NCBI GenBank assembly: GCA_016182915.1
Contig: JACPFP010000002.1
Location: 155,188-219,187 of the forward strand
Origin: Candidatus Dojkabacteria bacterium
Lineage (GTDB): Bacteria; Patescibacteriota; Dojkabacteria; SC72
DNA: 64,000 bases
Reading direction: 5' to 3'
Positions within the stretch are counted from its first letter, which is position 1. Each line of letters starts with the position of its first letter. The position numbers and the translations under genes are program-made. Under the pieces are notes generated by a model. That model saw only the letters and a program-made list of their open reading frames with translations. It had not been told where the DNA came from and made no database searches. Of this stretch, positions 5,173-38,063 are shown piece after piece.

Positions 5173-5217
5173 AATGGCAGTTTCTGTAAATTATGGGCAA
5201 ATCTGGTATATCATACA

Positions 5218-5850: not shown

Positions 5851-5884
5851 AGAGAAATTGTACAGGACGAAGATGAAATATTTC

Positions 5885-10770: not shown

Positions 10771-10772
10771 TA

Positions 10773-12097: not shown

Positions 12098-12113
12098 TCA
12101 ATAGTATATTGTG

Positions 12114-13169
12114 CTATATAATTTCATTCCATGATCTTTGAATACGCTCAAGAAGCTCAATGTGATCAAGCATTAACGAGGTACCTCTTGCAACCGTAGA
12201 CATAGGGTCATTTACAATATTTACAGGGACATTCAGTTCACTCTGCCACAATTTGTCGAGTCCGCGAATCAGTGCTCCCCCACCCGCCAAATTAATACCC
12301 GAGGTGAGTAGATCTGTAAGAAGTTCTGGTGGGGTTTCTTCAATAGCATCTTTAACTGCATCTGTAATCTGTTCGATAGAGTTCAGCATTGCCTCTCTTG
12401 CTTCCACACTTGTAAACTCAACAGACTTTGGGAGTCCTGTAATAAGGTCGCGACCCTGTATTATAACAGTCTGCTCTTCTTCTAATGGCGAGGCGGAACC
12501 TATTGCAATTTTAACATCTTCAGCCGTTCGCTCTCCTATTAAAATATTATATTTATCCCTAACATAATCAATTATATCCTGATCCATCTCATCTCCCGCA
12601 ATCCTAATCGTCTTGTCTACAACAATATCTCCTAAGGAGAGAACCGCAATATCTGAAGTCCCCCCTCCGATATCAACAATCATACTTCCTGAAGCCTGTT
12701 CAACAGGTAATCCAGCTCCAATCGCCGCTGCCATTGCCTCTTCAACTATAAAGACCTCACGAGCTCCAGCCGTCTTACACGCATCAATAACAGCCTGACG
12801 TTCAACCTCTGTTACAGAGGATGGTACGCCAACAATAACTCTTGGTTTTGGAATCTTAAATGATTTAGCAACATAGGTATGAGTAAGGCCAATAAAATGA
12901 TGGATCATTGCCTGCGTAGTATCGAAATCTGTAATTACACCATCACGCAAAGGCCTCACAGCAACTACGTTTGCAGGGGTTCTTCCAATCATCTGCCTTG
13001 CATCCTTTCCAACTGCTAGTACCCTGTTGGTCTTCTTATCTATAGCAACAACGGAAGGCTCAGAGACAACAATTCCTTTACCTCTCAGGTATACCATTGT
13101 ATTGGCAGTTCCTAGGTCTATACCGATATAGTATGTAATAAGTTCTAGAAGGGAATTAATAATATTCAT
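12114..13169 (-). CDS. mreB: rod shape-determining actin homolog MreB
   Basis: YIGIDLGTANTMVY..., DIGGGTSD and GGGALIRGL actin-fold motifs. Confidence 0.95.
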   Translation of the reverse strand: MNIINSLLELITYYIGIDLGTANTMVYLRGKGIVVSEPSVVAIDKKTNRVLAVGKDARQMIGRTPANVVAVRPLRDGVITDFDTTQAMIHHFIGLTHTYVAKSFKIPKPRVIVGVPSSVTEVERQAVIDACKTAGAREVFIVEEAMAAAIGAGLPVEQASGSMIVDIGGGTSDIAVLSLGDIVVDKTIRIAGDEMDQDIIDYVRDKYNILIGERTAEDVKIAIGSASPLEEEQTVIIQGRDLITGLPKSVEFTSVEAREAMLNSIEQITDAVKDAIEETPPELLTDLLTSGINLAGGGALIRGLDKLWQSELNVPVNIVNDPMSTVARGTSLMLDHIELLERIQRSWNEII

Positions 13170-22028: not shown

Positions 22029-22054
22029 AGACCGGAGCAATCCGGTCTTTTTTT
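22029..22054 (+). terminator. rho-independent terminator after rplL
   Basis: AGACCGGA-gcaa-TCCGGTCT hairpin followed by TTTTTT. Confidence 0.8.
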
Positions 22055-22171
22055 ACCTCCTAAAATGATTGAAAATATGCCCCTTAAATGCTATAATTAC
22101 GACATAAATTCCTCACTATGCCCTAGGTACTTTTACCTAGAAAAATCAAATTAAATTAGAATTTTTAAAAT

Positions 22172-22828
22172 ATGACAGAACTAACCCAGTGGCTACTCTC
22201 TCATGGTATTTCTATGGCAGTTTTGGAGATATTAGTATTTGTGCCTATCCTCGCCACCCTTGTAAACCTATCCCGATATTTTATTGGGTTTAAATCCTTT
22301 GGAATCTATGCACCAATAATATTAGGTCTTTCATATAGATATACAGGCCTTAGATACGGTTTAATCATAACTCTTCTTGTGGTACTCTCCTCTCTCATTG
22401 GATACTCCATAATGCGAAGGATACGTATGCACTATCTAGCGAGAGTCGCTATAAACTACTTAATTGTTGCCATTATTCTTCTTTTCGGAATTGCGGGATT
22501 AGACAGTCTTGAAATTTTAGGCTTCACAAACTTTGAAAGCATCAATCCCCTCGCCCTTATCTCCATTGCCGCCCTTTCTGACTTCTTTATAAAAATGTAT
22601 GTAAAAAAGAGCATTGCTGCTACAGTTAGAGTTCTCCTCGAAACCGTTCTAATTTCTGTAATAGGATGGGTGTTGATCTCTTCTGAAACAATAATCGGTT
22701 TTATGTTGAGTAATCTATGGATGTTAGGTGCAATACTTCTCTTCAATCTTCTGATTGGTAGATATACAGGACTACGAATCAAAGAATATTTTAGATTCAG
22801 CTTCGTCGTCAAAAATGACAATAAATGA
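22172..22828 (+). CDS. polytopic (approx. 6-7 TM) membrane protein, partner of RimK-like ATP-grasp
   Basis: 218 aa, almost entirely hydrophobic helices. 14-bp overlap with the downstream ATP-grasp gene suggests translational coupling. Confidence 0.6.
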   Translation: MTELTQWLLSHGISMAVLEILVFVPILATLVNLSRYFIGFKSFGIYAPIILGLSYRYTGLRYGLIITLLVVLSSLIGYSIMRRIRMHYLARVAINYLIVAIILLFGIAGLDSLEILGFTNFESINPLALISIAALSDFFIKMYVKKSIAATVRVLLETVLISVIGWVLISSETIIGFMLSNLWMLGAILLFNLLIGRYTGLRIKEYFRFSFVVKNDNK

Positions 22829-24305
22829 ACTAATCCGTTTAAATAAAGAGGTTCTGGGAATTAATAGACGAAACCAGGCTTTCGTTCGTGAGTTTAATCC
22901 TCTATCTGCGAAAGTAATTGCAGATAACAAGATTATAACCAAAAGGGTTTTAGCGAAGGTTGGGATAAAAAGCGCCGAACTATATAAGGTTATTAGAACG
23001 AAAAAGCAGTTGGAATTCCTTGATTGGGATTCAATACCAAATAGTTTTGTTCTTAAACCAAACCAAGGTACAGGTGGTAATGGAATTGTTGTGTTCTACG
23101 GCAAGAAGAAGGGAAAGTACGAATGGATTAGACCAAACGGTACAACAATGGATCAGAAAGACCTGATCCTACATATTGAAAATATCCTTGATGGGAGATT
23201 TTCAATGGGTAATAGGAACGATCTCGCGATCATCGAAGAAAGAATCAAAACAGACAGCACATTAAAACCCTTCACATATAAGGGAGTCCCTGATGTTAGA
23301 GTCATAGTTTTCAATAAGATTCCACTTCTGGCAATGCTAAGACTTCCAACCAAACGATCAAACGGTACTGCAAACCTTCACTCAGGAGCTATATGTGTAG
23401 GAATCGATATTGCCTCTGGAATTACAAGAGAAGGAATGTACTTAAAAAAGAGCCCTATCATTGAGGATACCTATACAAGCACAGATACCACCCTTGATCT
23501 TGAAGATAATATCCCTCTAATAGGTATTCAAATCCCATATTGGAATGAAATACTTGAGATCGCTGTTAAATCCCAGCAGGCAAGCGGATTAGGTTATATA
23601 GGTGTAGATATCGCTTTAGACAAAGAGAAGGGCCCTATGGTGCTTGAAATCAACGCAAGGCCGGGCTTAGGTATACAGGTAGCAAACAAAATCGGATTAA
23701 GAGCCAGATTAGAACGAGTAAAAGGGATTGAAGTTAAGAGTTTGAGACATGGAGTAAGACTTGCAAAGAATATTTTCGGAGGCGAGGTTGAGGAGGAGAT
23801 TGAAAATATCAGCGGTAAGACAGTTGTTAACCTCATAGAAAAGATTCTCCTTTTCCATAAACCAGAGATAGAGATGTCTAAAAAGAAACAGAAAAAAATC
23901 CTTGCTAAAAAGGAAGTCGTTAAAGCAATGCTTGATACCGGAATAATAACCTCACGTATTGACTGGGGAATAGCATCAAGAATTGGATACTTTAAGGCCT
24001 TGGACTTCTTTAGAAAGCTTGGAATTCCTGAGACCTTCCCAACACTCAAAGATGCACAGGATTATATTGATAAAACTGGAAGTGAAAACATGCTGCATCC
24101 TGAAATTATCAGACTCGCTAAAATCAGTGATGAGACTGGAAACCACATCCTTCCCGTAGTAGAGGTAGAGATAAAAATTGCGGGTGAGGTTAAAAAGGTT
24201 GAAATGGTAGTTAGCAGACAACAAGCCATCATATACCCAGTCCTGATAGGGAGAAAAGAGCTGAATAATTACCTTATAGATACAAGTAAAACATTTACAA
24301 ATTAA
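22815..24305 (+). CDS. RimK-like ATP-grasp amidoligase fused to C-terminal retropepsin-like (DTG) aspartic peptidase domain
   Basis: ATG at 22815 (MTINELIRLNKEVLGINRRNQ...). ATP-grasp core motifs (VLKPNQGTGGNGIVV, VRVIVFNKIPLLAMLRLPT, GVDIALDKEKGPMVLEINARPG). The C-terminal ~150 aa carry a DTG motif (AMLDTGIITSRID) in a retropepsin-like context. Confidence 0.7.
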   Translation: MTINELIRLNKEVLGINRRNQAFVREFNPLSAKVIADNKIITKRVLAKVGIKSAELYKVIRTKKQLEFLDWDSIPNSFVLKPNQGTGGNGIVVFYGKKKGKYEWIRPNGTTMDQKDLILHIENILDGRFSMGNRNDLAIIEERIKTDSTLKPFTYKGVPDVRVIVFNKIPLLAMLRLPTKRSNGTANLHSGAICVGIDIASGITREGMYLKKSPIIEDTYTSTDTTLDLEDNIPLIGIQIPYWNEILEIAVKSQQASGLGYIGVDIALDKEKGPMVLEINARPGLGIQVANKIGLRARLERVKGIEVKSLRHGVRLAKNIFGGEVEEEIENISGKTVVNLIEKILLFHKPEIEMSKKKQKKILAKKEVVKAMLDTGIITSRIDWGIASRIGYFKALDFFRKLGIPETFPTLKDAQDYIDKTGSENMLHPEIIRLAKISDETGNHILPVVEVEIKIAGEVKKVEMVVSRQQAIIYPVLIGRKELNNYLIDTSKTFTN

Positions 24306-24328
24306 CCTTAATACTTTAACCTCAGGAT

Positions 24329-25303
24329 ATGGAAAAAGATTTTTTGAAAATAGCCGGGAATGTACATCTCGCATACTACATTGAAGCTGCTGATATCCTT
24401 GGAATCAAGTATGAAGTTATATTTAGAAACCTAACCGCTCGTTTTGAACATCAAGGTAAACACTGGTTTATAAACAATACCGCCCTACCAGTAAATAACG
24501 CACCCAGCTCAAGATTAGCCAGAGGAAAACACTTTGCAAGTAGAATTCTCGATTTAGCAGGTATCCCAGTACCCCAACAAGCTAGTGTTGAGAATGTAGA
24601 GGAAGCAATCTCTTTCTTTAACGAGCATAATGAGGTTGTAGTTAAGCCTTCTCAAAATCTTGGAGGAAAGGGTATATCAATCCTTCCGGCCAATGCAGAG
24701 GATCTATCCAAGGCATACGAGTATGCTAAAGGCTACGATAAACATGGAAAGGTATTAATTGAGAAGTATATCCACGGAGATAATTATAGACTTCTAGTAG
24801 TCGGAGACACAGTCGTTGGTGTTGTAAGGAGGCTTCCTGCCACTATCACAGGCAGTGGTAGTTCAACTATAAAACAGCTAATTGAAGAGAAAAATATAGA
24901 GAGAAAGGCCCGAATGCTCATGCCAATACCTATAGATGAAGAAACAGTTAAACACCTTCAACATAAAGGGTTTACACTAGACACAGTTCTTCCTGCCGGC
25001 GTGATAACAACAGTCAGATCAAACACAAACCTAACAACAGGTGGTACAACTGAAGAGTGCAGTGAGATTGTCCACCCATACTATAAAGATATTGCAGTAA
25101 AGACAATAAAAGCTCTGGATTTGGAGTTCGCAGGAATAGATTTGATTACCAAAGATATCACTACCCCATCCGAATGTGCCGTTAACGAAGTGAATTACAA
25201 CCCAGGACTAAGACTTCACTATAAAGTAGATAAAGGAGAGATTAAAAAGGTTGCCATTCCTATTATGGAATATATTAGAGATCGCTATGCGAAAACGAAG
25301 TAG
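24329..25303 (+). CDS. stand-alone cyanophycin-synthetase-like (CphA G-domain-like) ATP-grasp ligase
   Basis: YRLLVVGDTVVGVVRRLPATITGSGSSTIKQLIEE..., TNLTTGG and AGIDLITKDITTP resemble CphA ATP-grasp motifs. No Mur-ligase domain is present. Confidence 0.65.
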   Translation: MEKDFLKIAGNVHLAYYIEAADILGIKYEVIFRNLTARFEHQGKHWFINNTALPVNNAPSSRLARGKHFASRILDLAGIPVPQQASVENVEEAISFFNEHNEVVVKPSQNLGGKGISILPANAEDLSKAYEYAKGYDKHGKVLIEKYIHGDNYRLLVVGDTVVGVVRRLPATITGSGSSTIKQLIEEKNIERKARMLMPIPIDEETVKHLQHKGFTLDTVLPAGVITTVRSNTNLTTGGTTEECSEIVHPYYKDIAVKTIKALDLEFAGIDLITKDITTPSECAVNEVNYNPGLRLHYKVDKGEIKKVAIPIMEYIRDRYAKTK

Positions 25304-25362
25304 TTCGATCTATCTTGCTCCGCTCTTTTAACTAAATATTTATAACTCAAACCCGTGTTTAT

Positions 25363-26340
25363 ATGCACAACAACTATTTCGAAGTAAGCGCTGAAAACAA
25401 CTTTGAACTTGGATTACAATTAGGAAAACTGTTTAGAGAAAATTTAAATGAGACCTTAAAGGAGGCTCATCTCAATCCTAACTGGGATCAAGTGGTTGAA
25501 CAATCTTCAATGTATCTCAAGAAGACAAAAGATTTGTTCCCACACCTTATTGAAGAACTCAAAGGATATGCTAAAGGAGCAGACGTCGATTTTATGAATT
25601 TATGGGCGCTTAGCCTTGAGGATGAATTATACTTTGAAGAAAAGTGTTCAACAGTGATTACAAACAATGGCATGTTAGTTGGACACAACGAAGACTATAA
25701 GGATGCAGAAGAAAAAGTCTGTATACTTAAAAAAACGATTAAAGGAAAAACAATCCTCGAACTATACTATCTACATACCCTAGGCGGGAATTCAATCTCT
25801 ATAAACTCAAACGGATATATCCACGCAATTGACTCACTTTCACAATCAGATCGTAAAGTCGGAATTCCCAAGAATGTGATTGCAAGATGGTTCTCTGAAA
25901 CATCATCTCCTTCGGATGATTTTCAAAAATTATCTACTTTAGATAGGTCTTCAGGATTTTGTCATAATATAGTAAACATCACAGGAGAAGTAATAACTAT
26001 TGAATCTACTGCCACAAAACAACTGATTGAGACCATAGAAACTCCTTTCGTACATACAAACCACTATTTAACAGACTTAAAGACTTTTGAAGCCAACGAT
26101 AATTCAACCTGCACATTTGAAAGATTCAAAAGTGCAAGAGAAAATATTAAAGAGCAAATGAAAGTTACAGAGATGCAATCACTCCTTTCATTGAATAATA
26201 ATGGTCCTCAGGCTAGCCTCTTTAACGAAAGAACAGTTGGAAGAATGATTATAGATAATACAGAAAGATTGGCGTATATATGGCTAGGTAGAGAAAAGGA
26301 GAAAGGTTGGATTAAATATAATCTCAATTTTATTGTATGA
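25363..26340 (+). CDS. Ntn-hydrolase-like protein (tentatively peptidase C45/acyltransferase-like)
   Basis: A candidate nucleophile Cys in EEKCSTVITNNGMLVGHNEDY is reminiscent of the C45/linear-amide hydrolase family. The family call is tentative. Confidence 0.4.
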   Translation: MHNNYFEVSAENNFELGLQLGKLFRENLNETLKEAHLNPNWDQVVEQSSMYLKKTKDLFPHLIEELKGYAKGADVDFMNLWALSLEDELYFEEKCSTVITNNGMLVGHNEDYKDAEEKVCILKKTIKGKTILELYYLHTLGGNSISINSNGYIHAIDSLSQSDRKVGIPKNVIARWFSETSSPSDDFQKLSTLDRSSGFCHNIVNITGEVITIESTATKQLIETIETPFVHTNHYLTDLKTFEANDNSTCTFERFKSARENIKEQMKVTEMQSLLSLNNNGPQASLFNERTVGRMIIDNTERLAYIWLGREKEKGWIKYNLNFIV

Positions 26341-28024
26341 TAGATATATGAAAACACAGGTACTCCAAGGTGCAAACCTTATAAATACAGTGACAACTGT
26401 AAATATAACCCTTGATACAACTCCAAAAACAGAGTTTATAGAAGAAATCCAGAAGATTCATCCACTCTTTTTAGATGAGTTTATGGTGGAAGGTAAGACG
26501 ATAAGTATACAAACCAAACTCCCCCATCTATGGAAGGAAGCAGCAGTTGCCCTAAATAACTACTCCAACGGAGAATGGAGCTATGACCTAACAAAGTCAT
26601 TCCTATATGAGACACTAATCAAAAAACAAATTCTCTCTATGTCCACCATTCCAATACTGAGAGCAGCCCACGAACTAGGTTATGAAACAACCCAATATTT
26701 TATAGAGGAGGGCTTCACACCTGAAGGAGTTCTTAAAAAGTATAATAGATACTATGCAATTGGCGTAGGACAGGAAACTGAAACTATGATCTCAATAGCA
26801 AGCAGTGGTGATTCCAACCTTGCAAAGATGATTCAGGAGGATAAGTGGCTCACCAATATTATGCTTGACAGATTAAAACTCCCTATTGCTAAATGGGAAC
26901 TAATCCCAAGCAAGGATAGCCTTAAGGAGCTACACGAGAAGTATAGAAAGCCATATGTAATCAAACCTGTCGGTCTCACAGGCGGACACGGCGTTACAAC
27001 AAACATAGAAAGCCTTGATCAAGCTAAATCTGCCTACGATGTTGCAAATAAATCTATTGAATCAAAGGAGAGAAAAGATTGGCAGAAAAAGATAATGATA
27101 CAGGAACAAGTTTCTGGAGAAGACTACAGGCTTCTCGTTATCAATGGAGTCTTGGAGATTGTAACAAAAAGAATACCTGCCTTCGTAGTCGGTAACGGAA
27201 GCTCAACCATAGAAGAGTTAATAGTAGAAACTAATAAAGACCCACGAAGAGACACTTCCCTCCCAACCCATATCTTAAAACCAATCGTTATAGACGACCA
27301 GCTTAAAAGCTTCCTTAAAGAACAGGATCTCAATCTAAAGCATATCCCTAAAGCAGACGAGAAAGTATATGTAAGAAAGGTAGCAAGTATGAGTCAGGGA
27401 GGAATTACTGAAGACTTCACAGACCAGGTAAGTAAACAGATTAGATATATTGTAGAATCCCTTGCTAAATCCCTGCACGCCTATGCACTAGGGGTAGATA
27501 TCATCTGCCAGGACATATCAAAACCATTAACAATGGAAAACGGGTCAATCATTGAGTGCAACACAATGCCAGAATCATATCTTAATGCCTTCCCTGTAAT
27601 TGGAAAACAGTATCCTAATATAGGAAAAATCGTAGTAGAGGGATTAATCGGAAAGAAACCTAAAACAAAGAAATATGTATATATTGGAAAAAATATGAAG
27701 AAATTTGAGACTTTCCTTGCATTAAATACGGATGAGTCGGAAGATAGAGTTGGAATATATAGAAACGGAGAAGTAATTATTAATAACGAAGTTATAAACA
27801 GGTCGGTAGAAACTTGGAGAGCTATAGAGGCTCTTAAACTTAACTCATCCCTCTCTGTAATAGTCCTCCACTATCTATCGTTTGATGAGGTAGAAGAGTA
27901 TGGACTGGGTTTTGACTATACAGATGCAGTGGTTATCGAAAAAGAGCTTGAATCAACGAAACAATATTCCACAATACAAGGTCTTTCAAACATGGGAGTT
28001 GTTACAAAGGTGGAGACTATTTAG
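26333..28024 (+). CDS. cyanophycin-synthetase-like protein with N-domain plus ATP-grasp G-domain, lacking Mur-ligase M-domain
   Basis: DYRLLVINGVLEIVTKRIPAFVVGNGSSTIEELIVETNKDPRRDTS... matches the CphA G-domain GDGxSTIxELI...DPRRG pattern. An ~200-aa N-terminal domain is also present. The protein is 563 aa against ~900 aa for CphA. The track start is TTG at 26333, with an alternative ATG at 26348. Confidence 0.7.
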   Translation: MYDRYMKTQVLQGANLINTVTTVNITLDTTPKTEFIEEIQKIHPLFLDEFMVEGKTISIQTKLPHLWKEAAVALNNYSNGEWSYDLTKSFLYETLIKKQILSMSTIPILRAAHELGYETTQYFIEEGFTPEGVLKKYNRYYAIGVGQETETMISIASSGDSNLAKMIQEDKWLTNIMLDRLKLPIAKWELIPSKDSLKELHEKYRKPYVIKPVGLTGGHGVTTNIESLDQAKSAYDVANKSIESKERKDWQKKIMIQEQVSGEDYRLLVINGVLEIVTKRIPAFVVGNGSSTIEELIVETNKDPRRDTSLPTHILKPIVIDDQLKSFLKEQDLNLKHIPKADEKVYVRKVASMSQGGITEDFTDQVSKQIRYIVESLAKSLHAYALGVDIICQDISKPLTMENGSIIECNTMPESYLNAFPVIGKQYPNIGKIVVEGLIGKKPKTKKYVYIGKNMKKFETFLALNTDESEDRVGIYRNGEVIINNEVINRSVETWRAIEALKLNSSLSVIVLHYLSFDEVEEYGLGFDYTDAVVIEKELESTKQYSTIQGLSNMGVVTKVETI

Positions 28025-29408
28025 AAACCCTCTTCTTCTTAATCATCCCCGAAACTTTTAAGCTTCCGAATATTAGCGCAGCAAGGCCAACGGTAATTCC
28101 TGCAAACATAAGAGTTTTTTTAGGAACCTTATTTATCATTCCTATAGGATTTTTATTATTTTCCCTTTTGTATTCATCAAACTTCTTCAAAAGATAACTC
28201 TGACCAGGGAAATATGGGAGTCTATTGATCATATCCCTCACTACCCTCCTATTACTTACCCTCTTTCCCTTTACACTCACATACTGTGCATATATATCGT
28301 ATGTGCGTTTTGCAATATCTGACCAGTCCCAGTTGTCAACTTTATGCCTTGCTCTTTTACAAATATCTGTATAATCATTCTGTGAAAGATCGGCAATCTT
28401 TCTAACACTTTTCGCGAACTCTTTTGGAGATGCCTTCCTATCTATCCATATACCCACAGAGCTATCAACAAGCTCGTCAATCGTCTCGTTTGAAAGCCCT
28501 ACGATAGGTTTTCCAGCAGCCAACGCCTCGATAACCGACAAAGCCTGCACCTCAGCAATAGAGGCTGATACGAAAATATGTGATTTTTCCAAATACCCCG
28601 GTATTTTATCCGGGCTAACTCCATCTATAATCTCTACATTTCTATACTTTGAAGCCATCTTCCTGAAACTTTTCTCGTAATCCTCGAAAAGGAAACGTCC
28701 AATTAGAGTCAATCTGAAGTTCTTTGGGAAATATTTCATAACTTTCAAGAGATATTCCTGATTTTTTCTCTTTGAAATTGATCCTACGAAGATGAGATTT
28801 CTTTCCTTTTTTTTCTGAGATTGTAGTTCCAAAGAATTTAATCTTTCAAGAAACCTACCATTCGGAACAATATGCATATTTCCTGTGTATCCATAGTTAC
28901 GAAGTTCATTGGAAGCCACCTGGTTTAAAGCTATGACAGCAGTGCAATTCTTTAGATAATCCTGAAAATACTGCTTAAAGATCATCTCATTCATCATCTT
29001 GTAAACAAAGGAATCTGCTGATACATCAAAGAAACTTGCTATTTTGGTTGGGAGATAGTGAGAGGTATAGAAATATGGGATATTGTTATTGACAGCCCAA
29101 ATCTGCCCAATGAACGGTGCTAACCATCCACTATGCGAATGAACAATATCAGGTTTAAAGCTATCCAGAAAATCAAAGAAGAATTGGACTGTGTTAGGAG
29201 TGAATACTCCTAGCTCTCCACTTTCATAATCTCCACCCTGTAGTGTAACCTTAAGCATCCCATCCTCTTTATATATCCTGTTCTCTGTACCTGTGAAAAC
29301 AAGTGCTGTCTCTGCATATTCTGACATTGCCTGTGAAATTTCCATTGCAACCCTCGTCTCCCCTCCTAGGGTCTCTTCGGTTCCTGCAGCTAAATAGACA
29401 ACTTTCAT
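28017..29408 (-). CDS. GT4 family glycosyltransferase with C-terminal TM anchor
   Basis: GT-B fold motifs (EVQALSVIEALAAGKPIV) and a C-terminal hydrophobic helix LMFAGITVGLAALIFGSL. Confidence 0.85.
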   Translation of the reverse strand: MKVVYLAAGTEETLGGETRVAMEISQAMSEYAETALVFTGTENRIYKEDGMLKVTLQGGDYESGELGVFTPNTVQFFFDFLDSFKPDIVHSHSGWLAPFIGQIWAVNNNIPYFYTSHYLPTKIASFFDVSADSFVYKMMNEMIFKQYFQDYLKNCTAVIALNQVASNELRNYGYTGNMHIVPNGRFLERLNSLELQSQKKKERNLIFVGSISKRKNQEYLLKVMKYFPKNFRLTLIGRFLFEDYEKSFRKMASKYRNVEIIDGVSPDKIPGYLEKSHIFVSASIAEVQALSVIEALAAGKPIVGLSNETIDELVDSSVGIWIDRKASPKEFAKSVRKIADLSQNDYTDICKRARHKVDNWDWSDIAKRTYDIYAQYVSVKGKRVSNRRVVRDMINRLPYFPGQSYLLKKFDEYKRENNKNPIGMINKVPKKTLMFAGITVGLAALIFGSLKVSGMIKKKRVSK

Positions 29409-30235
29409 TACTTAGTATTAATAAACTCTTTAATAACATTGTATGATTTCTCCGGCTCAAAGGAAAGATGTCTGTGATTAAGAGCATTTATAATAACGGG
29501 CTTAACATGGAGCATATCTGCAATCTCCTGGGTAAACTGCTTGAAATACCACGGTTCATTAGCATTATATATAACCAAACTCTCCCCTTTGAAGTTATTA
29601 AGTCCCTTCTGATCTAGATCCTTCAGTGTAAAAACCGGTGTCATACTACTCTCAACGTCCCCATTCATTGCGTCTAAAAATATGAGATTTATATAGTACC
29701 TTGCCTTAGACAGATACAATCTCGAAGTGAGAAGCTCCAAAGCATATATAAGTTTAATATTAAATCTTAAGATAGCCAAAGGTATCCTTAACTTCCTAAA
29801 ACCATCGTAAACAGAAGCATTAAGACTTAATCGGGACTTCGTTTCAAAGATATTCTTCCTGCTGTGAAAACCCGATACAACAATATTCTTGCTTGGATTA
29901 ATATACCCCATTGATATAGCATGCAAGATGAATGTAACACCAAGAGAATACCCTGCTACACCGTAATCCTTAAATTCAAAAGAGTTTATGAATTTGGAGA
30001 TAAAAAGAACATATGAATCAAAATCTTTGACCTTAAGCAACTGTTTTGACTTACTCCCCCATCCAGGAAGATTTGCTCGTATAACTCTAATACCATCATC
30101 TTTCATAAGTTTGGTAATCCCATCAAAAGCAATACTTGATGATCCCCAAGGCGGTATAAAAAAGAGCGGGAATCCCTCCCCCTCATCTAGGTATGTAATC
30201 TCAATTCCATCAATCTTTCTACTTAGGTACTCCAT
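29408..30235 (-). CDS. alpha/beta hydrolase fold protein
   Basis: GxSxG nucleophile elbow (GYSLG). 275 aa, cotranscribed with the GT4 gene. Confidence 0.75.
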   Translation of the reverse strand: MEYLSRKIDGIEITYLDEGEGFPLFFIPPWGSSSIAFDGITKLMKDDGIRVIRANLPGWGSKSKQLLKVKDFDSYVLFISKFINSFEFKDYGVAGYSLGVTFILHAISMGYINPSKNIVVSGFHSRKNIFETKSRLSLNASVYDGFRKLRIPLAILRFNIKLIYALELLTSRLYLSKARYYINLIFLDAMNGDVESSMTPVFTLKDLDQKGLNNFKGESLVIYNANEPWYFKQFTQEIADMLHVKPVIINALNHRHLSFEPEKSYNVIKEFINTK

Positions 30236-30322
30236 ATTCCTCAGTATATCACAACATTAACAGTTCATCAGGATACTGCTATAATGACAATTATAGCTAT
30301 TTAATATAACTAAACATACCTA

Positions 30323-31264
30323 GTGAAATACCTAATCCTTGATAAAAAGCAGAGAATACATATAGAGAATAAGTACTCATATGTACTAACTAGAATAGTC
30401 GAAGAACTGGAAAAGATGGGAGCAGAATATAAAGTGGCATACAATGACGAGATTGAAGTAGCATTTATAGAAGGAAAGACTACAATAAGTGTACAGGGTG
30501 AAAATATAGAGAATTTTTCTCACATAATGTTCAGAGGAATGAGGTTAGACAGGCAGATTGAATATGAAACACGAAAGATCATTGTAGACTATATTGAGCA
30601 ATATAATATCTCAAACCCAAGCAAAGCCATTAAGGTTCAAAATCTTAAAGCCATAAAAAGGACTCATTTCTACGATAAGATATTCATAACCCACCTATGT
30701 GTACAGAATGGAGTTGCAATAATGAACACACTTTATAGGCCTATGGGTAACTACTCCGTGGAACATTCGCCTCTTAAATACCCTATGATTGTAAAACAGT
30801 ACGCAGGAGAGAACGATATAAGAGTGATTGAAGGAAAGGAGACCGTTAAAAAGAATGTCTTTCTCGTAAATAGCCCTGAGGAATTCCAGCAGGAGCACCT
30901 TAGAGATAGAAATCTCTCTGAATACATAATTCAGGAATTCATACCCTCAGGTGAAGACTTCAGAGTATTCGTTTCCAAAGGAAAAGCCCATTCAGGTTTT
31001 GGAAGAAAAGCTACCACCAACTTCATGACTGTAAATGCCGGTGAATATGCCAAACTCGACTTAGAGAAAAGGTCAGATCTCAAAGAATTTGCCCAGAAGG
31101 TTTCCTCAGTTTTCGGAGCAGACTTCATCGCAGTTGATATGATGATGAAAAATGGAAAACCCGTGCTACAAGAAATTAGCTTCAATCCAGGCTTTAAAGC
31201 CTTTGAAACCAAAACCGATGGTGAGTTTATTAATATGGCAAAGGTAATAATCGAATCTCTTTAA
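30323..31264 (+). CDS. ATP-grasp family ligase (RimK/GshB-like)
   Basis: GTG start. ATP-grasp features (DFRVFVSKGK..., ADFIAVDMMMKNGKPVLQEISFNPG). Confidence 0.7.
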   Translation: MKYLILDKKQRIHIENKYSYVLTRIVEELEKMGAEYKVAYNDEIEVAFIEGKTTISVQGENIENFSHIMFRGMRLDRQIEYETRKIIVDYIEQYNISNPSKAIKVQNLKAIKRTHFYDKIFITHLCVQNGVAIMNTLYRPMGNYSVEHSPLKYPMIVKQYAGENDIRVIEGKETVKKNVFLVNSPEEFQQEHLRDRNLSEYIIQEFIPSGEDFRVFVSKGKAHSGFGRKATTNFMTVNAGEYAKLDLEKRSDLKEFAQKVSSVFGADFIAVDMMMKNGKPVLQEISFNPGFKAFETKTDGEFINMAKVIIESL

Positions 31265-32418
31265 ATCCCTAATCTCTTGAAAATCTGGTTAACCTTCTCA
31301 GGATCTAATACTAGTTTTGCCTTTGGAATAAGGCCATCTTCAACCCAGGAGACCTGCTTCATACTAATCTTTCCAGCATACAGCTTTTCGTAGAGGGAGG
31401 AATCCTTCGCAATTGCCTTCCTAACTCTCCTATATCCCCTAAAATACACGACATCCTTATAATATAGTCCTGGTAGTGATGTATCGCCTAACCCCCTTTT
31501 AACGCGGTATGCGAAGTCAAATGCGAGATTCTTAGCAAGAAACGCTGTCATTGCATTATATAGGTCCCTGAAACTTACAGCCTCCCCCCAATACAATAAC
31601 CAACTAAAGGTTGCTTTCCTCTTCAAGGCATCAAAAGTGAGGACTTTCATAAGTTCCTCATTATATGTTGCCAATCCCTCTTCAATATCCTGATATTCCG
31701 GCAAATTGGATTTATATAGAACGGGTACTCCAGAGTGGATTCCGTTATATGACCTTAATACATGCGTCCCAATCTCATGAACAATCGATTTCCTAAGGTC
31801 GATTTTGGAGCGGGAGATATCCCCAGAAAGCAGTACTTCCTTCCTCTTTACCCCTACTTTCATAGCCTCATCTGCAATTCTTCCAGACTTAGCAACGGTC
31901 CAATCAGAAAACCCCAATTCACCTAGAAATTTAGTCATAATCCTCTCTATTTCAGCATATTCATACTCTCTTCCCTCTTTCTTCTGTTCTACAAGGTCGT
32001 AGTTTGAAACTTTTCCCCTTAAAACGAGAGATGCATTTTTGAATAGTCTTGCTGATGGTCTACCAAACCTCTTCCTAGAGATCTCTGTAATTAACCGATT
32101 ATCCCCTACTGCATTAAGCATATCGTTAACCTCTGATTTAGATTCTATGAGTTTCAGATAGAATTCTGAGATTCTTGGATCAACGTCAGAAATACTGGTT
32201 ATATCAGCTAACTCACGAAGGAGAGAGGAATTAACATTCTTAACAGGCTTATATTTAAAGTTAGGACTGTATGTCTCCGATTCAATAAACTTCTGCTTCT
32301 CCTCATCCAAGTTTATAGGCGTAAATACGTATGAAGTTGGGAGTTTAAGAAGATCTAGTTTCGCAACAACCTCTTCCTGTGTAACAACTCTTTTTCCCCT
32401 TCTACTAAATATAAACAC
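31261..32418 (-). CDS. DUF1704/MATCAP-like QEGLA-motif putative metallocarboxypeptidase
   Basis: EEGLATY (a QEGLA-like motif) and an HExxxH-type motif VHEIGTHVL. 4-bp convergent overlap with the ATP-grasp gene. Confidence 0.65.
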   Translation of the reverse strand: MFIFSRRGKRVVTQEEVVAKLDLLKLPTSYVFTPINLDEEKQKFIESETYSPNFKYKPVKNVNSSLLRELADITSISDVDPRISEFYLKLIESKSEVNDMLNAVGDNRLITEISRKRFGRPSARLFKNASLVLRGKVSNYDLVEQKKEGREYEYAEIERIMTKFLGELGFSDWTVAKSGRIADEAMKVGVKRKEVLLSGDISRSKIDLRKSIVHEIGTHVLRSYNGIHSGVPVLYKSNLPEYQDIEEGLATYNEELMKVLTFDALKRKATFSWLLYWGEAVSFRDLYNAMTAFLAKNLAFDFAYRVKRGLGDTSLPGLYYKDVVYFRGYRRVRKAIAKDSSLYEKLYAGKISMKQVSWVEDGLIPKAKLVLDPEKVNQIFKRLGI

Positions 32419-32464: not shown

Positions 32465-33721
32465 CTACCAATCTAAATCAGAGAGGAAGGCTCCAAGAAG
32501 AAACCAAACCCAGGGTGTCATGAAAAAATCGTATGTTATATTTCCGACGACGATGATTGAAAAGAGGCCCAATATAAGCGGAGACTTCCTTTTAAGTAAC
32601 TCAAGACCTAGGGAAATCACTACAAAACCAAAGGATAGAATCCCAATAATTCCCCCTTCTGCAAGCATTTTGGCATATACGGAATGTGGGGTAGCAAACT
32701 GGACCCTACTATCTATATTTTCCCTGTAATATTGAGGGAAATTCCCTATTCCAATTCCTAACACAGGATGTTTAAGAAAGATTTTAATAGATTGAATCCA
32801 GTAGTTTATATGTTCATTCGCTGAAAAATCGGCAAGGGTCAACCTTGTTAAAGCAAGAGGAAGGAATGAGGAATACACACGGCCTTTAACACCATCCTTA
32901 CGCATTATGAATCTATGACCATAGTAGACAATGAATCCTACTATTAATGCTAAATAGCCCGTTCTTGATGCCGTTAGAAGAATCATAGCAAGAGATAAAA
33001 TAAGAACAGATGTCGATAGAAGCATACTCTTTCTCTTATTAATCAGATCTACAGAAAAAACTGAAATCATAGCAAGAAAAACAGCAAATACATTAGTATC
33101 AATCATTAATGAACTAGGCCTGAGAAACAGTCCATTATCGGCAGTCCTAATATTGAATGCTGAGGCAGAAACAAAACCGCCTTTATCAAATACGCTAATA
33201 AACCATCCTAAATCCTGATTCATTCGATAATCCACATACTGCGTTAATCCAACAATAATCAGGATGAGAGCAGAAAAAAGTAATCCTTTCTTAAAAGTAT
33301 CACTGTCGCTCTTTTTAGGTAGTACAATTCCGACAAGGAATAGAGAGATGAGTATAGAATAATATCCTAACCCCATAATACTCTCATTAAGATTGTAAGA
33401 GGTCAGTAAAGATATAGCGGAAGCTAGGAGAAAGACACCTAAAGAGATAAATACAACCTTATACCGGATGAAAGCGGTGACAACAGCATCGAAAAGAGTA
33501 CGGAGACTTTTTCGGCAATATATCAAGTAGATTGCTAATAGAACCAAATATACAACTATCCATAATACTTTAGTCAGAGTTCTTGGACTTATCTCTCCTT
33601 CTGCTAAAATATCAACTATAAATGAGAGCCTTCCGGAAATAAGAATAAATAGAAATACGGATAGTATATATCCCATATTATGATGATATCTCTTTAGTAA
33701 ATACTCTATCTCCACTTGCAA
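32465..33721 (-). CDS. O-antigen ligase/polymerase-like (Wzy_C) polytopic membrane protein
   Basis: >10 TM helices. LTASRTGYLALIVG and HSVYAKMLAEGGIIG match the Wzy_C family R/H motifs. The true start is probably the internal Met near 33676. Confidence 0.6.
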   Translation of the reverse strand: MQVEIEYLLKRYHHNMGYILSVFLFILISGRLSFIVDILAEGEISPRTLTKVLWIVVYLVLLAIYLIYCRKSLRTLFDAVVTAFIRYKVVFISLGVFLLASAISLLTSYNLNESIMGLGYYSILISLFLVGIVLPKKSDSDTFKKGLLFSALILIIVGLTQYVDYRMNQDLGWFISVFDKGGFVSASAFNIRTADNGLFLRPSSLMIDTNVFAVFLAMISVFSVDLINKRKSMLLSTSVLILSLAMILLTASRTGYLALIVGFIVYYGHRFIMRKDGVKGRVYSSFLPLALTRLTLADFSANEHINYWIQSIKIFLKHPVLGIGIGNFPQYYRENIDSRVQFATPHSVYAKMLAEGGIIGILSFGFVVISLGLELLKRKSPLILGLFSIIVVGNITYDFFMTPWVWFLLGAFLSDLDW

Positions 33722-34691
33722 TCAGTTCAAGAGCCATACCAGTACCCTTAGCCACACAGAACATAGGTTCATCTGCAACATGAGCAGGTACACCCGTTGC
33801 CTTGGAGAAGAGCTTATCCAGATTTTTCAAGAGTGACGTTCCTCCGCTCATAACCATCCCTCTATCGATTATATCAGCGGCTAACTCTGGAGGAGTTTTC
33901 TCCAAAACCTCTTTTATAGCGCCAATAATCTTTGATAGTGCAAATTTCAAAGCCTCCGCAATCTCATTTGAATCAATCTTAATTGATTTTGGCATTCCCC
34001 CTGCTACATCCCTACCCTTTATCTCCATCTCCTTAGGATTCTGAACCTTAATTGCGGAACCAATTTTCATCTTAATACTCTCTGCTGTCTGCTCTCCAAT
34101 CAAGATTCCTCTCTTCCTTCTCATGTATGCAATTATGGATTCATTTAGGGCATCTCCAGCAACGCGTAGAGAGTTGAATTCAACAATACCGTCAAGTGAT
34201 ATAACTGCAATCTCTGCTGTACCACCACCAAGGTTAACAATCATATTTCCAGAAGAGGTTTCAATAGGTAGGCCTGCACCAAGGGATGCCAGAAGAGGTT
34301 CAGGAAGAAGACTTACTTTTCTCGCCCCTGCTCCCATAGCAGCCTTTAATACAGCTCTTTCCTCAACAGATGTAATTCCTGCAGGCACACTAATCATTAC
34401 TTCAGGCTTGAAGAACTTTGATGTTCCCAATGCCTTATTTAAAAAGTATTTTAACAACGCCTCTGTTACTCTGGAATCTGCAATTACACCGCTTCTAAGA
34501 GGCCTTTTAGCAACGATATTATCTGGAGTTTTACCTATCATTTCTTTTGCCTGCTGCCCTACCGCTATCACTGTGAACTTATTCACATCGATAGCTACAA
34601 CTGTAGGCTCCATAAGGACAATACCTTCTCCCTCAACAAAAACTATTGAGTTAGCAGTTCCTAGATCTATTCCTACCTTTTTTCCAAACAT
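33678..34691 (-). CDS. second MreB-like actin homolog (paralog)
   Basis: VGIDLGTANSIVFV..., NLGGGTAEIAVISL and MSGGTSLLKNL motifs. Confidence 0.85.
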   Translation of the reverse strand: MFGKKVGIDLGTANSIVFVEGEGIVLMEPTVVAIDVNKFTVIAVGQQAKEMIGKTPDNIVAKRPLRSGVIADSRVTEALLKYFLNKALGTSKFFKPEVMISVPAGITSVEERAVLKAAMGAGARKVSLLPEPLLASLGAGLPIETSSGNMIVNLGGGTAEIAVISLDGIVEFNSLRVAGDALNESIIAYMRRKRGILIGEQTAESIKMKIGSAIKVQNPKEMEIKGRDVAGGMPKSIKIDSNEIAEALKFALSKIIGAIKEVLEKTPPELAADIIDRGMVMSGGTSLLKNLDKLFSKATGVPAHVADEPMFCVAKGTGMALELIASGDRVFTKEISS

Positions 34692-34731: not shown

Positions 34732-36204
34732 TTAGTATTTAATCAACATAGCTTCTTTCATCTGATCAGCCACTCCTCTAGCTATCCCCCTTACCTTCTT
34801 ACTCCCTTCGAGCGCCTTTCTTAGTAATTCTTCCTTCATACCTTCAGCAACCTTTCTCCTCTCTCTTATTGGGGTTAGGAACTCATTCATTACTTTGAAA
34901 AGAATCTCTTTAACCTCAACATCCCCTATCCTCCCTTCTCTATATCTCCTTTTTAACTCTTCTACCTGCTGCTTATCCTCATTAAAAAGGTCGTGGTATG
35001 CAAAGGCGATATTACCTTCGACAGTTCCCTTATCCGTTGCGCTCTTCCTATTTGGATCTGTATATACACTAAAGACCTTCTTTCTAAGGACCTCTTCACT
35101 ATCTGAAAGGTATATAGCATTATTTAAACTCTTCCCCATCTTCGAGTTCCCATCAATACCTGGAACATTGGTTGCAACTCCATACAGTCCTTCAGGCTGG
35201 TGTAAGTACTTCACTTTATATGTACTATTAAACTTCCTTACAATCTCTCTTGTATCTTCAATCATAGGGGCCTGATCCTTTCCTACGGGAACCAAATCCG
35301 CGTTAACACACAATATATCTGCAGCCTGGTGAATAGGATATACAAAGAAACCAAGTGGCGTGGACTCCTCCATATTATTCTGTTTAATCTCAGTTTTAAT
35401 AGTTGGGTTATGCATAATCTGCTGAACAGAGGTGAAGTTTGCCAAATACATAAATATTTCATGTACCTCAGGTACTTCAGACTGAATATACACAGTACTC
35501 TTATCGAAATCTATTCCTACAGCATAGTAGTCACAGAGAAGTTCAAGAATACTTTCTTTAACCATCTGAGGATTATCTGCATTGTCACTAAGGGCATGGA
35601 TATTTGCAATGAGGATAAACTGCTCGTACTCATCTTGTAAGGCAACCCTATTTTTAAGAGTGCCCATATAATGACCTACATGCATCTTTCCAGTTGGCCT
35701 ATCACCAGTTAAGATCCTCTTCTTTCCACTTACAGAACGCTCTGATGGCGCGGTGAATTTTCCAATAGTCCCTCTTGTGATAGTTAAAAGATCCTTTGGA
35801 GCAAGTTGAATATCAGTAAATTCATCTCCAGCACCTCCATTAATTACCTTTCTCTCCAGTAGTGATTCATCCATATAGTATTTTAGTGATGGATGGTAAA
35901 CCCCAACTGCGCCAACGGTAAATCCGAAATTGTTCTTTACCTCTTCAGGGGTTGCCATGTTTAAACTCTTAACTCCCATCAGCTTCTTCAGTTCATTGGA
36001 TAGGATTTTCCTGTCATCCCTTCTATGCACACCAACGAATCCTTTTTCAGTTTTAAAGATAAGGGTAGAGACTCCATCCTCGAATGATATATTTACCGCT
36101 CTAACTCCTTCTTCAACTGTGAATACGGCTCCATGCTTAACAAAGCTTACTTCCTTTAAGCCTAACTCCTTAACCCTATTTTGTAATACCTCTAAGTTAC
36201 TCAT
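34732..36204 (-). CDS. trpS: tryptophanyl-tRNA synthetase with N-terminal YbaK/ProX-like deacylase domain
   Basis: C-terminal class I core (TGDRPTGKMHVGHYMG HIGH region; KMGKS). The N-terminal ~170 aa resemble the YbaK trans-editing domain (TLIFKTEKGFVGV..., GFTVGAVGVY, VINGGAGD). Confidence 0.85.
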   Translation of the reverse strand: MSNLEVLQNRVKELGLKEVSFVKHGAVFTVEEGVRAVNISFEDGVSTLIFKTEKGFVGVHRRDDRKILSNELKKLMGVKSLNMATPEEVKNNFGFTVGAVGVYHPSLKYYMDESLLERKVINGGAGDEFTDIQLAPKDLLTITRGTIGKFTAPSERSVSGKKRILTGDRPTGKMHVGHYMGTLKNRVALQDEYEQFILIANIHALSDNADNPQMVKESILELLCDYYAVGIDFDKSTVYIQSEVPEVHEIFMYLANFTSVQQIMHNPTIKTEIKQNNMEESTPLGFFVYPIHQAADILCVNADLVPVGKDQAPMIEDTREIVRKFNSTYKVKYLHQPEGLYGVATNVPGIDGNSKMGKSLNNAIYLSDSEEVLRKKVFSVYTDPNRKSATDKGTVEGNIAFAYHDLFNEDKQQVEELKRRYREGRIGDVEVKEILFKVMNEFLTPIRERRKVAEGMKEELLRKALEGSKKVRGIARGVADQMKEAMLIKY

Positions 36205-36491
36205 ATTTATTTAGAATAAAATAAAAAATCCCCATATAACTAGACTAACATATTTTCAAAGTTAATCTAACTATATGGGGACGATATGGATAATCGTGGT
36301 ACCACCCCTATTCTCTTAGTATATTATACTAAGACTCATCGACTTTATATAAACATCGATTGAACCTTTACAGTGTTCCTCTGGCGCTCATACTTTCTTT
36401 TCAGATTTCTGTTTGCTGCTCCGGGGCCCATTCTCCCCATCAACGCATTTATTACTCAATTGTATTACATTATACCATACAGAAACGCTTC

Positions 36492-38063
36492 ATGTTATAC
36501 TTTACAACAGTGAAAAAGAAATTAGGAATTATCACAAAGATCATCATTCAGGTTATAGTTGCTCTCCTTGCAACAGCTTTTGTTGTAGCTGGAACCATCT
36601 TCGTCTACTACTATGCCAAAGGATATAGAATTGACCTAAAGTCTCGTGATCTCAGAAAAACAGGCGTTATAAACGTTGAAAGCCGTCCAAGTAAAGCCAA
36701 TATCACTATAAACGGAGAGAAGAACGGAAAAACTCCAAAGACCGTGGCTTCACTTGATGATGGAACCGTTGATGTTAAACTTACACGATCCGGATACCTT
36801 GATTGGAACAAGAAGGTTCCAATACTAAGCGAGAAATCCACCCCAATTATAGCCGAACTCTTTAAAGAAGAGCCTGAAGTTACGCAACAGATAGAGCTAA
36901 GTGCAGATTCACAATTACATACGACAATCAAATCTCTGAATGGTGAGGTTCTTATATATCTCACCAAAAGTCCAAAAAATGTGTATACCCTATGGAGATA
37001 CGATTTAAATAAGAGCTTCTGGAATCTGAGCAATAACCCACATATAGTATCCTCATTCACAGGATCCGACATTAAAAATATTAGAATCCTCCTCTCTCCA
37101 TCCGGCCAGAATCTTGTTGTACTATATGCCAAAACAGAGAAGAAAGTAGTTACAAACATCATAAATCTATATAACACCCAACTTACAGAAACCACAGGCC
37201 ATCCATTGGCTCTAACCAAATTTACGACAGACTATATCCTAACCTGGTCAGAGTCAGAAAACTACATAATATTAGACTCGACAAGTGACATTTTAGCCTT
37301 CAATATAACAAATCAAGCCAAGTATCTTCTTTATAAAAAAGCCCCGGATGAAAAGGTTGTATGGACAACAGATAGTCAAAATAACTTCTACTATACCCAG
37401 AAGTCTCTCGATGAAGCAGGTGGGTACCTAACTCTGGAACAATCCAGTCTTGACGGAACAGGAAGCAAAACCCTAATACCAAGAATATACTACAGTAATG
37501 ATGAAGGGTATATTGAAGCACTTAGACGGGACGATGCGATACATTCACCTTTCACAAACTCACCCCAAAACACTAGATTTGTAGGAGAGATATCCTCAAT
37601 CAAAGTAAACCAGGATACCAAAGGTATATTCCTCTCCACACAGTATAGTTCATACTGGTATGTAACCGAAGTAGATAAATATATTGTCATAAACCCATAC
37701 GAAACAACCTTCCTTTCTTTCTCGCCTAACAACAGATCCCTTCTTTTCACAGATGTAAGTAATAAAAAGGTAGGAGTATTTACGTTTATACAAGAGGTCA
37801 GCAACCCGATTAAGCAGCTAGGATCCAAGATTGTCCTTAGAGATGCAGATGATCTAACAAATATTGATTGGATAAGCAGTACAAATATTTCATATCAGAA
37901 AGGAGATTCGGTAAACTTGATCGATAAAGACGGGGACAATAACTATGAGATTAAAATTACATCATCCCCACATATATTCTCATTCACAGGCGGGGGAAAG
38001 TATGTACATACCATTGAAACGATAGAAGAGAACCTCAAACTAACGAAATATACTATTCAATAG
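36492..38063 (+). CDS. membrane-anchored PEGA-domain protein with beta-rich C-terminal region
   Basis: ATG at 36492 (MLYFTTVKKK...). TM helix, PEGA-like segment (ANITINGEKNGKTPKTV...VDVKLTRSGY), then a repeat-like beta region. Confidence 0.55.
   Translation: MLYFTTVKKKLGIITKIIIQVIVALLATAFVVAGTIFVYYYAKGYRIDLKSRDLRKTGVINVESRPSKANITINGEKNGKTPKTVASLDDGTVDVKLTRSGYLDWNKKVPILSEKSTPIIAELFKEEPEVTQQIELSADSQLHTTIKSLNGEVLIYLTKSPKNVYTLWRYDLNKSFWNLSNNPHIVSSFTGSDIKNIRILLSPSGQNLVVLYAKTEKKVVTNIINLYNTQLTETTGHPLALTKFTTDYILTWSESENYIILDSTSDILAFNITNQAKYLLYKKAPDEKVVWTTDSQNNFYYTQKSLDEAGGYLTLEQSSLDGTGSKTLIPRIYYSNDEGYIEALRRDDAIHSPFTNSPQNTRFVGEISSIKVNQDTKGIFLSTQYSSYWYVTEVDKYIVINPYETTFLSFSPNNRSLLFTDVSNKKVGVFTFIQEVSNPIKQLGSKIVLRDADDLTNIDWISSTNISYQKGDSVNLIDKDGDNNYEIKITSSPHIFSFTGGGKYVHTIETIEENLKLTKYTIQ

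Follow-up and report, generated by a model that had tools for sequence, protein, structure and literature searches.

Cyanophycin synthetases of the CphA1 type are proteins of approximately 870–900 residues, in which an N domain, an ATP-grasp G domain and a Mur-type M domain are joined. CphA2 is regarded as a cyanobacterial speciality that was derived from CphA1 and, to our knowledge, only these two enzyme types make cyanophycin. CphA2 polymerises beta-Asp-Arg to cyanophycin, and is found together with cphA1 and cyanophycinase. The architecture described for CphA2 is an N domain and a G domain followed by a truncated, inactive M domain (PMC10273328), and most CphA1 enzymes carry a peptidase motif, Cx19HxxEH, in the N domain (PMC9262961). 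The aspartate that enters the G domain of CphA1 is recognised by Arg323, Asn394 and Arg458, the last of which is replaced by Met or Tyr in GshF (PMC9427784). The present study concerns a 64 kb stretch of DNA from Candidatus Dojkabacteria (WS6, a member of the candidate phyla radiation, CPR), referred to here as the window, and in particular two genes in it, at 24329–25303 and 26348–28024, whose predicted products, of 324 and 558 aa, resemble the G domain of CphA. It is proposed, tentatively and at a little under an even chance, that these are two cooperating G-type ligases that extend an aspartate-containing non-ribosomal peptide or polymer other than classical cyanophycin.

The two genes and the one between them were found at exactly the positions (24329–25303, 25363–26340 and 26348–28024) given in an earlier note on this DNA, and encode the following.

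24329..25303, + strand: free-standing CphA-type G domain, 324 aa (TIGR02068, 1.2e-64; AlphaFold2 model; residue conservation)
25363..26340, + strand: predicted C45 Ntn hydrolase/acyltransferase, nucleophile Cys95 at nt 25645–25647 (NF040521; alignment to isopenicillin-N acyltransferase, 2x1d)
26348..26632, + strand: N domain of the 558-aa protein, approximately residues 1–95 (structural alignment to CphA2 and CphA1; boundaries approximate)
26633..27655, + strand: G (ATP-grasp) domain of the 558-aa protein, approximately residues 96–436 (profiles, PDB sequence matches, residue mapping)
27656..28024 including the stop codon, + strand: vestigial Mur-ligase (M) domain stub of the 558-aa protein, approximately residues 437–558 (alignment to CphA1 and CphA2)

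All three proteins are 100% identical to public NCBI Dojkabacteria proteins, where the names in use are ‘cyanophycin synthetase’, ‘ATP-grasp domain-containing protein’ and ‘hypothetical’. The third gene most likely starts at the ATG at 26348, which gives the 558 aa of its identical public counterpart (P0001), rather than at the TTG at 26333; the mechanical list of open reading frames (ORFs) extends this gene and one other in the 5′ direction to TTG codons (26333 and 22755), and in both cases the lengths of the orthologues and the public annotation favour the ATGs. No paper treating these proteins was found, and a search of the literature on cyanophycin in Dojkabacteria or CPR bacteria returned nothing relevant; a paper on pseudomurein names CphA merely as a member of the Mur family.

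The motifs from which a CphA G-domain signature had been recognised in both proteins are present: NYRLLV...GSGSSTIKQLI, NTNLTTGG and AGIDL in the 324-aa protein, and DYRLLV...GNGSSTIEELI..NKDPRRD, SMSQGG and LGVDI in the 558-aa protein. Cyanophycin synthetase was the best NCBIfam profile for each (TIGR02068, 1.2e-64, 218.8 bits, model positions 204–471, for the 324-aa protein; NF010623, 3.8e-68, 230.5 bits, model positions 185–572, for the 558-aa protein), followed by GshAB and N-acetylglutaminylglutamine synthetase (Ngg). Both proteins fall short of the cut-offs for full-length CphA1 (850 and 877 bits), and true CphA1 representatives score 973–1175 bits. The profile comparison that the earlier note had called for therefore sides with CphA and not with RimK, LysX or D-Ala-D-Ala ligase (Ddl), all of which score below their cut-offs (for the 324-aa and 558-aa proteins, respectively: RimK family 84 and 27 bits, with a cut-off of 143; LysX 42 and 25; Ddl 40 and 31).

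The same neighbours were found among proteins of known structure. For both sequences the ranking in the PDB was CphA1, CphA2 and GshF, followed by a large gap. Family profiles built from 46 relatives per family, when searched against PDB sequences, gave for the 558 family 221 bits to CphA1, 213 and 196 to CphA2, 133 to GshF and 33 to the next entry, and for the 324 family 177–185 bits to CphA1, 156–166 to GshF, 141–143 to CphA2 and 40 to RimK. The G domain of CphA1 (PDB 7LG5, 7WAC) is thus the best sequence and profile match of both proteins, each of which is 32–36% identical to it; this exceeds their identity to each other, which is approximately 25–26% (25% in the trimmed G-domain alignment, 26% by BLASTP). 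As judged by motifs and profiles, both belong to the CphA subclade of ATP-grasp ligases and are intact.

It is apparent that the two proteins differ in architecture. The 558-aa protein can be aligned to CphA for approximately 100 residues beyond the G domain, reaching the first part of the M domain (CphA1 residues ~485–588, CphA2 residues ~480–581). Its AlphaFold2 model, made on the family alignment, has a mean predicted local distance difference test score (pLDDT) of 92.5 and a predicted template modelling (TM) score of 0.88. In Foldseek searches this model matched CphA2 of Gloeothece citriformis (7ta5) with an E value of 1e-37 and TM scores of 0.73/0.70 over ~600 aligned columns, CphA1 structures with TM scores of 0.68–0.77 over ~590–640 aligned columns (gaps included) and GshF with TM scores of 0.46–0.51 over ~375–390 aligned columns. 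On the strength of the alignment past the G domain and of these fold matches, the protein is modelled as an N domain, an active-type G domain and a dead M stub, i.e. the CphA2-type architecture.

The suggestion that the larger protein has a CphA-like N-terminal domain thus holds by fold, but the domain went undetected by sequence, even with the 46-member profile; the Cx19HxxEH motif is present in none of the 46 relatives, and CphA2 lacks it as well. The M stub has IGKNMKK where the P-loop would read GTNGKT, and 46/46 relatives lack a P-loop here. The claim that neither protein has a Mur-ligase domain therefore stands with respect to a functional, arginine-adding domain (P-loop-M Lys499 and Mlid of CphA1 have no active counterpart in either protein), but not literally, since the 558-aa protein retains approximately 120 aa of it as a P-loop-less stub. 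Nor was a Mur-ligase-like fusion found among the relatives: the orthologues listed reach 599 aa at most, which is too short for the full domain. The AlphaFold2 model of the 324-aa protein (pLDDT 91.5) can be superposed on the TeCphA1 G domain, with TM scores of 0.82–0.87 at ~3 Å (Foldseek), and the protein is modelled as a bare G domain, with neither N nor M domain.

Residues were mapped on the basis of mutagenesis and structures of CphA1 (PMC9427784) and CphA2 (PMC10273328). The catalytic set of CphA1 (Lys261, Arg309 and the Asp/Glu/Asn Mg ligands) has invariant counterparts in the 324 family (K106, R154, D271, E287 and N289) and in the 558 family (K206, R261, D384, E403 and N405). Because the full ATP-grasp set is kept, both ligases are predicted to activate carboxylates and to form amides; each would use ATP to phosphorylate a carboxylate, which would then be linked to an amino group.

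The substrate pockets are less alike. The 324 family keeps all three aspartate-binding residues of CphA1 (R168 for Arg323, N234 for Asn394 and R295 for Arg458) in 46/46 relatives, and in the same 46 also R154 for Arg309, Thr or Ser at 236 for Ser396 and G293 for Gly456. These pocket residues are likewise kept by the L011 orthologue, which is 42% identical and comes from a remote lineage. R295 discriminates the family from GshF, which has Met or Tyr at this position. The 558 family keeps R261 (Arg309) and R275 (Arg323), but has an invariant Ser (S347) for Asn394, an invariant Glu (E409) for the oxyanion residue Gly456 and, at the Arg458 position, Y411, which is Phe in 4/46 relatives; CphA2 also has Tyr or Phe there. 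The acid that binds the arginine side chain (Glu215 in TeCphA1, Asp212 in StCphA2) is conserved in neither family: its position is occupied by K, N, E or M in the 558 family, and by T, R or K in the 324 family, where it adjoins a basic patch of the form K/R-R-K. Since this acid is what grips the arginine side chain, the product is predicted not to be arginine-decorated cyanophycin.

In terms of mechanism, the two enzymes would divide between them the work of lengthening a non-ribosomal peptide or polymer at its C-terminus. The 324-aa enzyme would add aspartate, as suggested by the three retained aspartate-holding residues together with the K/R-R-K patch at the primer site. The 558-aa enzyme, with its altered pocket (Ser in place of Asn, Tyr in place of Arg as in CphA2, and an invariant Glu in place of Gly), would add a different unit, and may also serve as a scaffold. 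The suggestion in the earlier note of a backbone-only or otherwise different polymer gains some residue-level support in this way, from the aspartate pocket kept in the 324 family and the arginine-binding acid lost from both.

In a phmmer search that covered 1.8 billion representatives exhaustively, the Dojkabacteria family ranked first, followed by a sister family and then by CphA-like proteins of many lengths. The sister family of the 558 family consists of proteins of 515–543 aa, 34–39% identical, with the shared signatures ASVSQGG and PEMYLN. A neighbour-joining tree was built from 44 G domains (265 columns, 200 bootstraps). In it, the 558 family and its sister family cluster with 100% support, as do the cyanobacterial CphA2 proteins (7ta5, 8fxh and P0417), and the two groups were monophyletic in 0/200 bootstraps. 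Because these two fully supported clades never join, the CphA2-like architecture of the 558 family is thus probably independent of, or at least not derived from, that of cyanobacterial CphA2. The deep nodes of the tree are weak (2–48% support), so that the branching point of neither family can be placed; a 13-member clade of short CphA-like proteins received 16% by direct count. The 558 family also differs from CphA2 (PDB 7TA5, 8FXH/8FXI) in that G-domain identity is only 33–36% and the 558-aa protein is shorter by approximately 75 aa.

Among the relatives there are natural tandem fusions of two CphA-like G domains, of approximately 750–800 aa (P0379, P0381, P0383, P0416, P0377, P0373, P0375 and P0376), some of which also bear an acylphosphatase domain, AMP-binding (adenylation) domains or tetratricopeptide repeats. 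All are seemingly uncharacterised. By analogy, they hint that paired G modules are a recurring design, and that two such modules can work together.

It was of interest to determine in what genetic context the pair is found. On the same strand, the genes for NusG, L11, L1, L10 and L7/L12 lie 5′ of it, with rplJ-rplL immediately upstream. The features around the three genes listed above are as follows.

22030..22056, + strand: intrinsic terminator of rplL, GACCGGAGCAATCCGGTC followed by a T run, read from the sequence; upstream edge of the transcription unit
22069..22097, + strand: promoter-like site of the five-gene operon, TTGAAA-17-TATAAT, 11/12 matches with an extended −10 TG (consensus match only)
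22172..22828, + strand: seven-transmembrane (7TM) membrane protein, RloB-like (PF14402, 6.2e-14; NF052267 model positions 314–507 of 508); in all loci examined
22815..24305, + strand: RloC-like ATP-grasp protein (ATPgrasp_ST/rimK_rel_E_lig; PF14397, 1.4e-64) with a C-terminal retropepsin-like (RimB/RloA-like) domain
28017..29408, − strand: GT4 glycosyltransferase (PF00534, 1.7e-23), a variable insert
29408..30235, − strand: alpha/beta-hydrolase-like protein with a GYSLG motif (weak NCBIfam matches), a semi-conserved accessory gene
30257..30285, + strand: promoter-like site before the RimK-like gene, 11/12 matches with TG (consensus match only)
30323..31264, + strand: RimK-like ATP-grasp ligase, 313 aa (PF08443, 7e-10; TIGR00768, 51.7 bits, below the cut-off of 143); in all loci
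31261..32418, − strand: MATCAP/DUF1704 (QEGLA) metallopeptidase (PF08014, 4.1e-31; TIGR02421, 1e-37; HEIGTH and EEGLA motifs); in all loci

Downstream of the rplL terminator and the promoter-like site there are five tightly spaced or overlapping genes (22172–28024). On these three grounds, the genes at 24329–28024 are read as the distal part of a five-gene operon. Cotranscription with rplJL was considered and rejected, as rplL has its own terminator and a separate promoter follows. The intergenic spacing within the operon is no more than 60 nt, too little to accommodate a small gene for a precursor peptide.

The organization of the locus was compared in 12 Dojkabacteria-type loci, i.e. the window, L001–L009 and L012, which share one gene order, and L011, which is rearranged. 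Six components were found in 12/12: the 7TM protein, the RloC-like/retropepsin protein, the 324-aa ligase, the ~557-aa ligase, the RimK-like ligase and the MATCAP peptidase. In the 11 loci of constant order, the MATCAP gene is on the opposite strand and is usually followed by a gene for an MreB paralogue. L011, which carries the sister family (34–39% identity), keeps all six components in a different order, and this is strong evidence that the genes belong together. The amidoligase island is therefore conserved across Candidatus Dojkabacteria, always just after rplJ-rplL.

Other genes in the island are variable inserts, namely those for the GT4 glycosyltransferase, the alpha/beta hydrolase, the C45 protein, TrmB and prolyl-tRNA synthetase. 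The GT4 gene occurs in L001 (judged from the length and position of the ORF), L006, L007 and L009 and is absent from L002–L005 and L008. The alpha/beta hydrolase occurs in 6/9 Dojkabacteria loci (30% identity to the counterpart in L008; Abhydrolase_1 matches in L007 and L009); none was found in L002–L005 or L011, and its absence from L011 led to its rejection as a core member.

Synteny extends beyond the island, as a PEGA-domain protein (36360–38063, +) followed by UvrA (39271–42147, +) is found downstream of it and in the same relative position in L004, L005 and L008. The window contains two MreB paralogues. One, at 12114–13169 (−), is canonical and lies in a cluster (8767–13169, −) with mreC (11267–12097) and PBP2 (8767–10770); the other, at 33678–34691 (−), adjoins the island, and in nearly all related loci this second MreB adjoins the MATCAP gene. 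Elsewhere in the window, the tyrosyl-tRNA synthetase (34732–36204, −; 490 aa) has an N-terminal fusion to a YbaK-type tRNA_edit domain, which is also seen in L004 and L006, and the arginyl-tRNA synthetase (49857–52463, −; 868 aa) has an extra N-terminal B3_4 domain and lies directly beside three tRNA-Arg genes (anticodons TCG, GCG and TCT; 52485–52820, −). An ORF of 1620 aa (58486–63348, −) has no Pfam match at E ≤ 1e-5.

The first two genes of the operon recall the RloABC/RimBK system of Pseudomonas (PMC12239564), in that an RloB-like 7TM protein is accompanied by an RloC-like ATP-grasp protein with a RimB/RloA-like retropepsin. Of RloB, the 22172–22828 protein resembles the 7TM half at the C-terminus; the inactive transglutaminase-like domain is missing. 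The product of 22815–24305 also matches TIGR02291 (2.6e-86, 289 bits, just below the cut-off of 314). The ORF opens at the TTG at 22755, and the ATG at 22815, which gives 496 aa, fits the orthologues (485–498 aa). Its retropepsin-like domain matches the RloA3 model (4.5e-09, but with 36 bits against a cut-off of 210) and PF05618 (25.9 bits against 27) below their cut-offs, and has a DTG motif at residue 374. In contrast to the Pseudomonas proteins, the retropepsin here lacks a signal peptide and forms one chain with the ligase, and the genes are combined with those of the CphA-like pair, the RimK-like ligase and the MATCAP peptidase. Pseudomonas depends on retropepsins, which have a positively charged channel and prefer anionic substrates, to trim the product of RloB and RloC, and the system influences osmotic tolerance and cell shape (PMC12239564). 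By analogy, the RloC-like and RimK-like ligases, the fused retropepsin and the MATCAP carboxypeptidase may further extend and trim the product, and the RloB-like 7TM protein may place, anchor or export it at the membrane. A bolder proposal, which we regard as rather unlikely, is that Dojkabacteria make a previously unknown aspartate-based, arginine-free poly(amino acid), backbone-only or with a new side unit, in which two G-type enzymes replace the G-plus-Mur-ligase logic and the partners extend, trim and export the polymer to the envelope.

The gene between the two ligases is a different matter. Its product passes the cut-off of NF040521 (C45_proenzyme; 127.8 bits against 85), and Cys95 (EEK-C-STV), which a GHNED motif follows, takes the position of Cys103, the nucleophile of isopenicillin-N acyltransferase (PDB 2X1D), in the alignment; the preceding residue is Lys here and Gly in the acyltransferase. 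The candidate Cys-Ntn hydrolase of the earlier note is therefore recognisable as a C45 Ntn hydrolase with Cys95 as its predicted nucleophile. Its proposed role as the cognate amidase fared less well. In the window, L001 and L009 the two ligase genes do flank it, and contig matching suggests that it is also present in four further close relatives, but it takes this position in one subclade only. It is absent from L002–L008, L011 and L012, even though the ligase of L006 is 69% identical. Other C45 relatives (43–52% identity) derive from Roizmanbacteria, Ktedonobacterales, Chloroflexota and others, and the one locus of these that was checked has no ATP-grasp neighbours. That locus (L010, Roizmanbacteria) carries two tandem C45 paralogues at 4759–6990, with genes for a gamma-glutamyl cyclotransferase-like GGACT protein and a GNAT protein nearby. 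The C45 gene was accordingly rejected as a core partner, and would be a later, optional addition to the island.

Several observations weigh against the proposal of an aspartate-containing peptide or polymer made by two cooperating ligases. All of the statements on specificity depend on homology to a few mapped residues, and co-location of six genes is not proof of a single pathway. His267 of P-loop-G, a catalytic residue of CphA1, is gone from both families, in which the loops read KPxQ(N/Q)LGGxG and KPxGLTGGxG, so that the chemistry may differ in detail from that of CphA1. One or both enzymes might make a soluble di- or tripeptide (glutathione-like, N-acetylglutaminylglutamine amide-like or resembling a cofactor tail), as the GshF module and Ngg do. 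These belong to the same ATP-grasp subclade and also lack His267; for the 324-aa protein GshAB (173 bits) and Ngg (168 bits) come second to CphA (218 bits), and GshF is among its top fold matches, so that it might be a small-molecule dipeptide ligase. We nevertheless consider this explanation unlikely. No GshA or GNAT partner, fused or as a separate gene, is present in the island; R295 corresponds to Arg458 of CphA1 and not to the Met or Tyr of GshF (PMC9427784); the 558-aa protein keeps the CphA-specific N domain and M stub, known from polymerases only; and four ligases and two peptidase modules exceed the needs of a dipeptide pathway.

Genuine cyanophycin metabolism, in the form of a true CphA2 activity on scavenged dipeptides, must also be weighed, since CphA2 is the best fold match of the 558-aa protein and shares its Tyr at the Arg458 position. 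Residues that bind substrate in StCphA2, as identified by mutagenesis, are T163, D212, R308, D362, R389, N393 and S395 (PMC10273328). In the 558 family, R261, D316, R343 and S349, the last three equivalent to the essential or important D362, R389 and S395, are kept, and probably T100 as well, so that the substrate might be a beta-Asp-Arg-like dipeptide. However, the position of D212, the guanidinium-binding acid, varies, an invariant Ser stands in place of N393, no bootstrap tree unites the family with cyanobacterial CphA2, and a Pfam sweep of the 44 ORFs of at least 200 aa in the window revealed no CphA1, cyanophycinase (S51) or stand-alone Mur-type ligase; no isoaspartyl dipeptidase gene was found in the window either. 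A true CphA2 is thus decidedly improbable. Tailing of protein C-termini, as by RimK on ribosomal protein S6 or TTL on tubulin, with the retropepsin and MATCAP removing the tails, appears quite unlikely, though perhaps a shade less so. Extension of a C-terminal alpha-carboxylate is the chemistry of the G domain, the RimK-like/RimB-like and ligase/MATCAP pairs resemble known tailing–detailing cycles, and the island always follows rplJ-rplL; yet the terminator and separate promoter described above stand between them, no protein with a conserved acidic tail emerged as a candidate target, the 7TM component suggests a site at the membrane rather than the ribosome, and we know of no CphA-family member that modifies proteins. 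Least probable, and very doubtful indeed, is the synthesis or modification of peptidoglycan stem peptides or cross-bridges, in the manner of the enterococcal ATP-grasp D-aspartate ligase. Envelope-related neighbours (the MreB paralogue, a Wzy_C O-antigen-ligase-like protein, the GT4 enzyme and the PEGA protein) would fit such a role, but all except MreB vary between loci, and the enzymes are of the CphA type and not of the Ddl or Asl type, with an N domain and M stub that have no counterpart in wall-peptide ligases.

The 558 family represents a second, probably independent lineage with the stripped-down architecture of CphA2, always paired with a free-standing G domain, and found in CPR bacteria with neither CphA1 nor cyanophycinase nearby in the window. 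The ultra-small genomes of CPR bacteria have shed many typically essential pathways (PMC11665869). That such gene-poor genomes keep approximately 8 kb for the island across the phylum suggests that its product, whether a storage or envelope polymer, is important. The pair would offer a test bed for how G-domain pockets set the choice of monomer, with possible use in the engineering of polyaspartate-type green polymers, and the island could illuminate what the Rlo system makes in Pseudomonas and Vibrio. Above all, the island is of value as a lead, open to testing, towards what may be a new poly(amino acid) of CPR bacteria.

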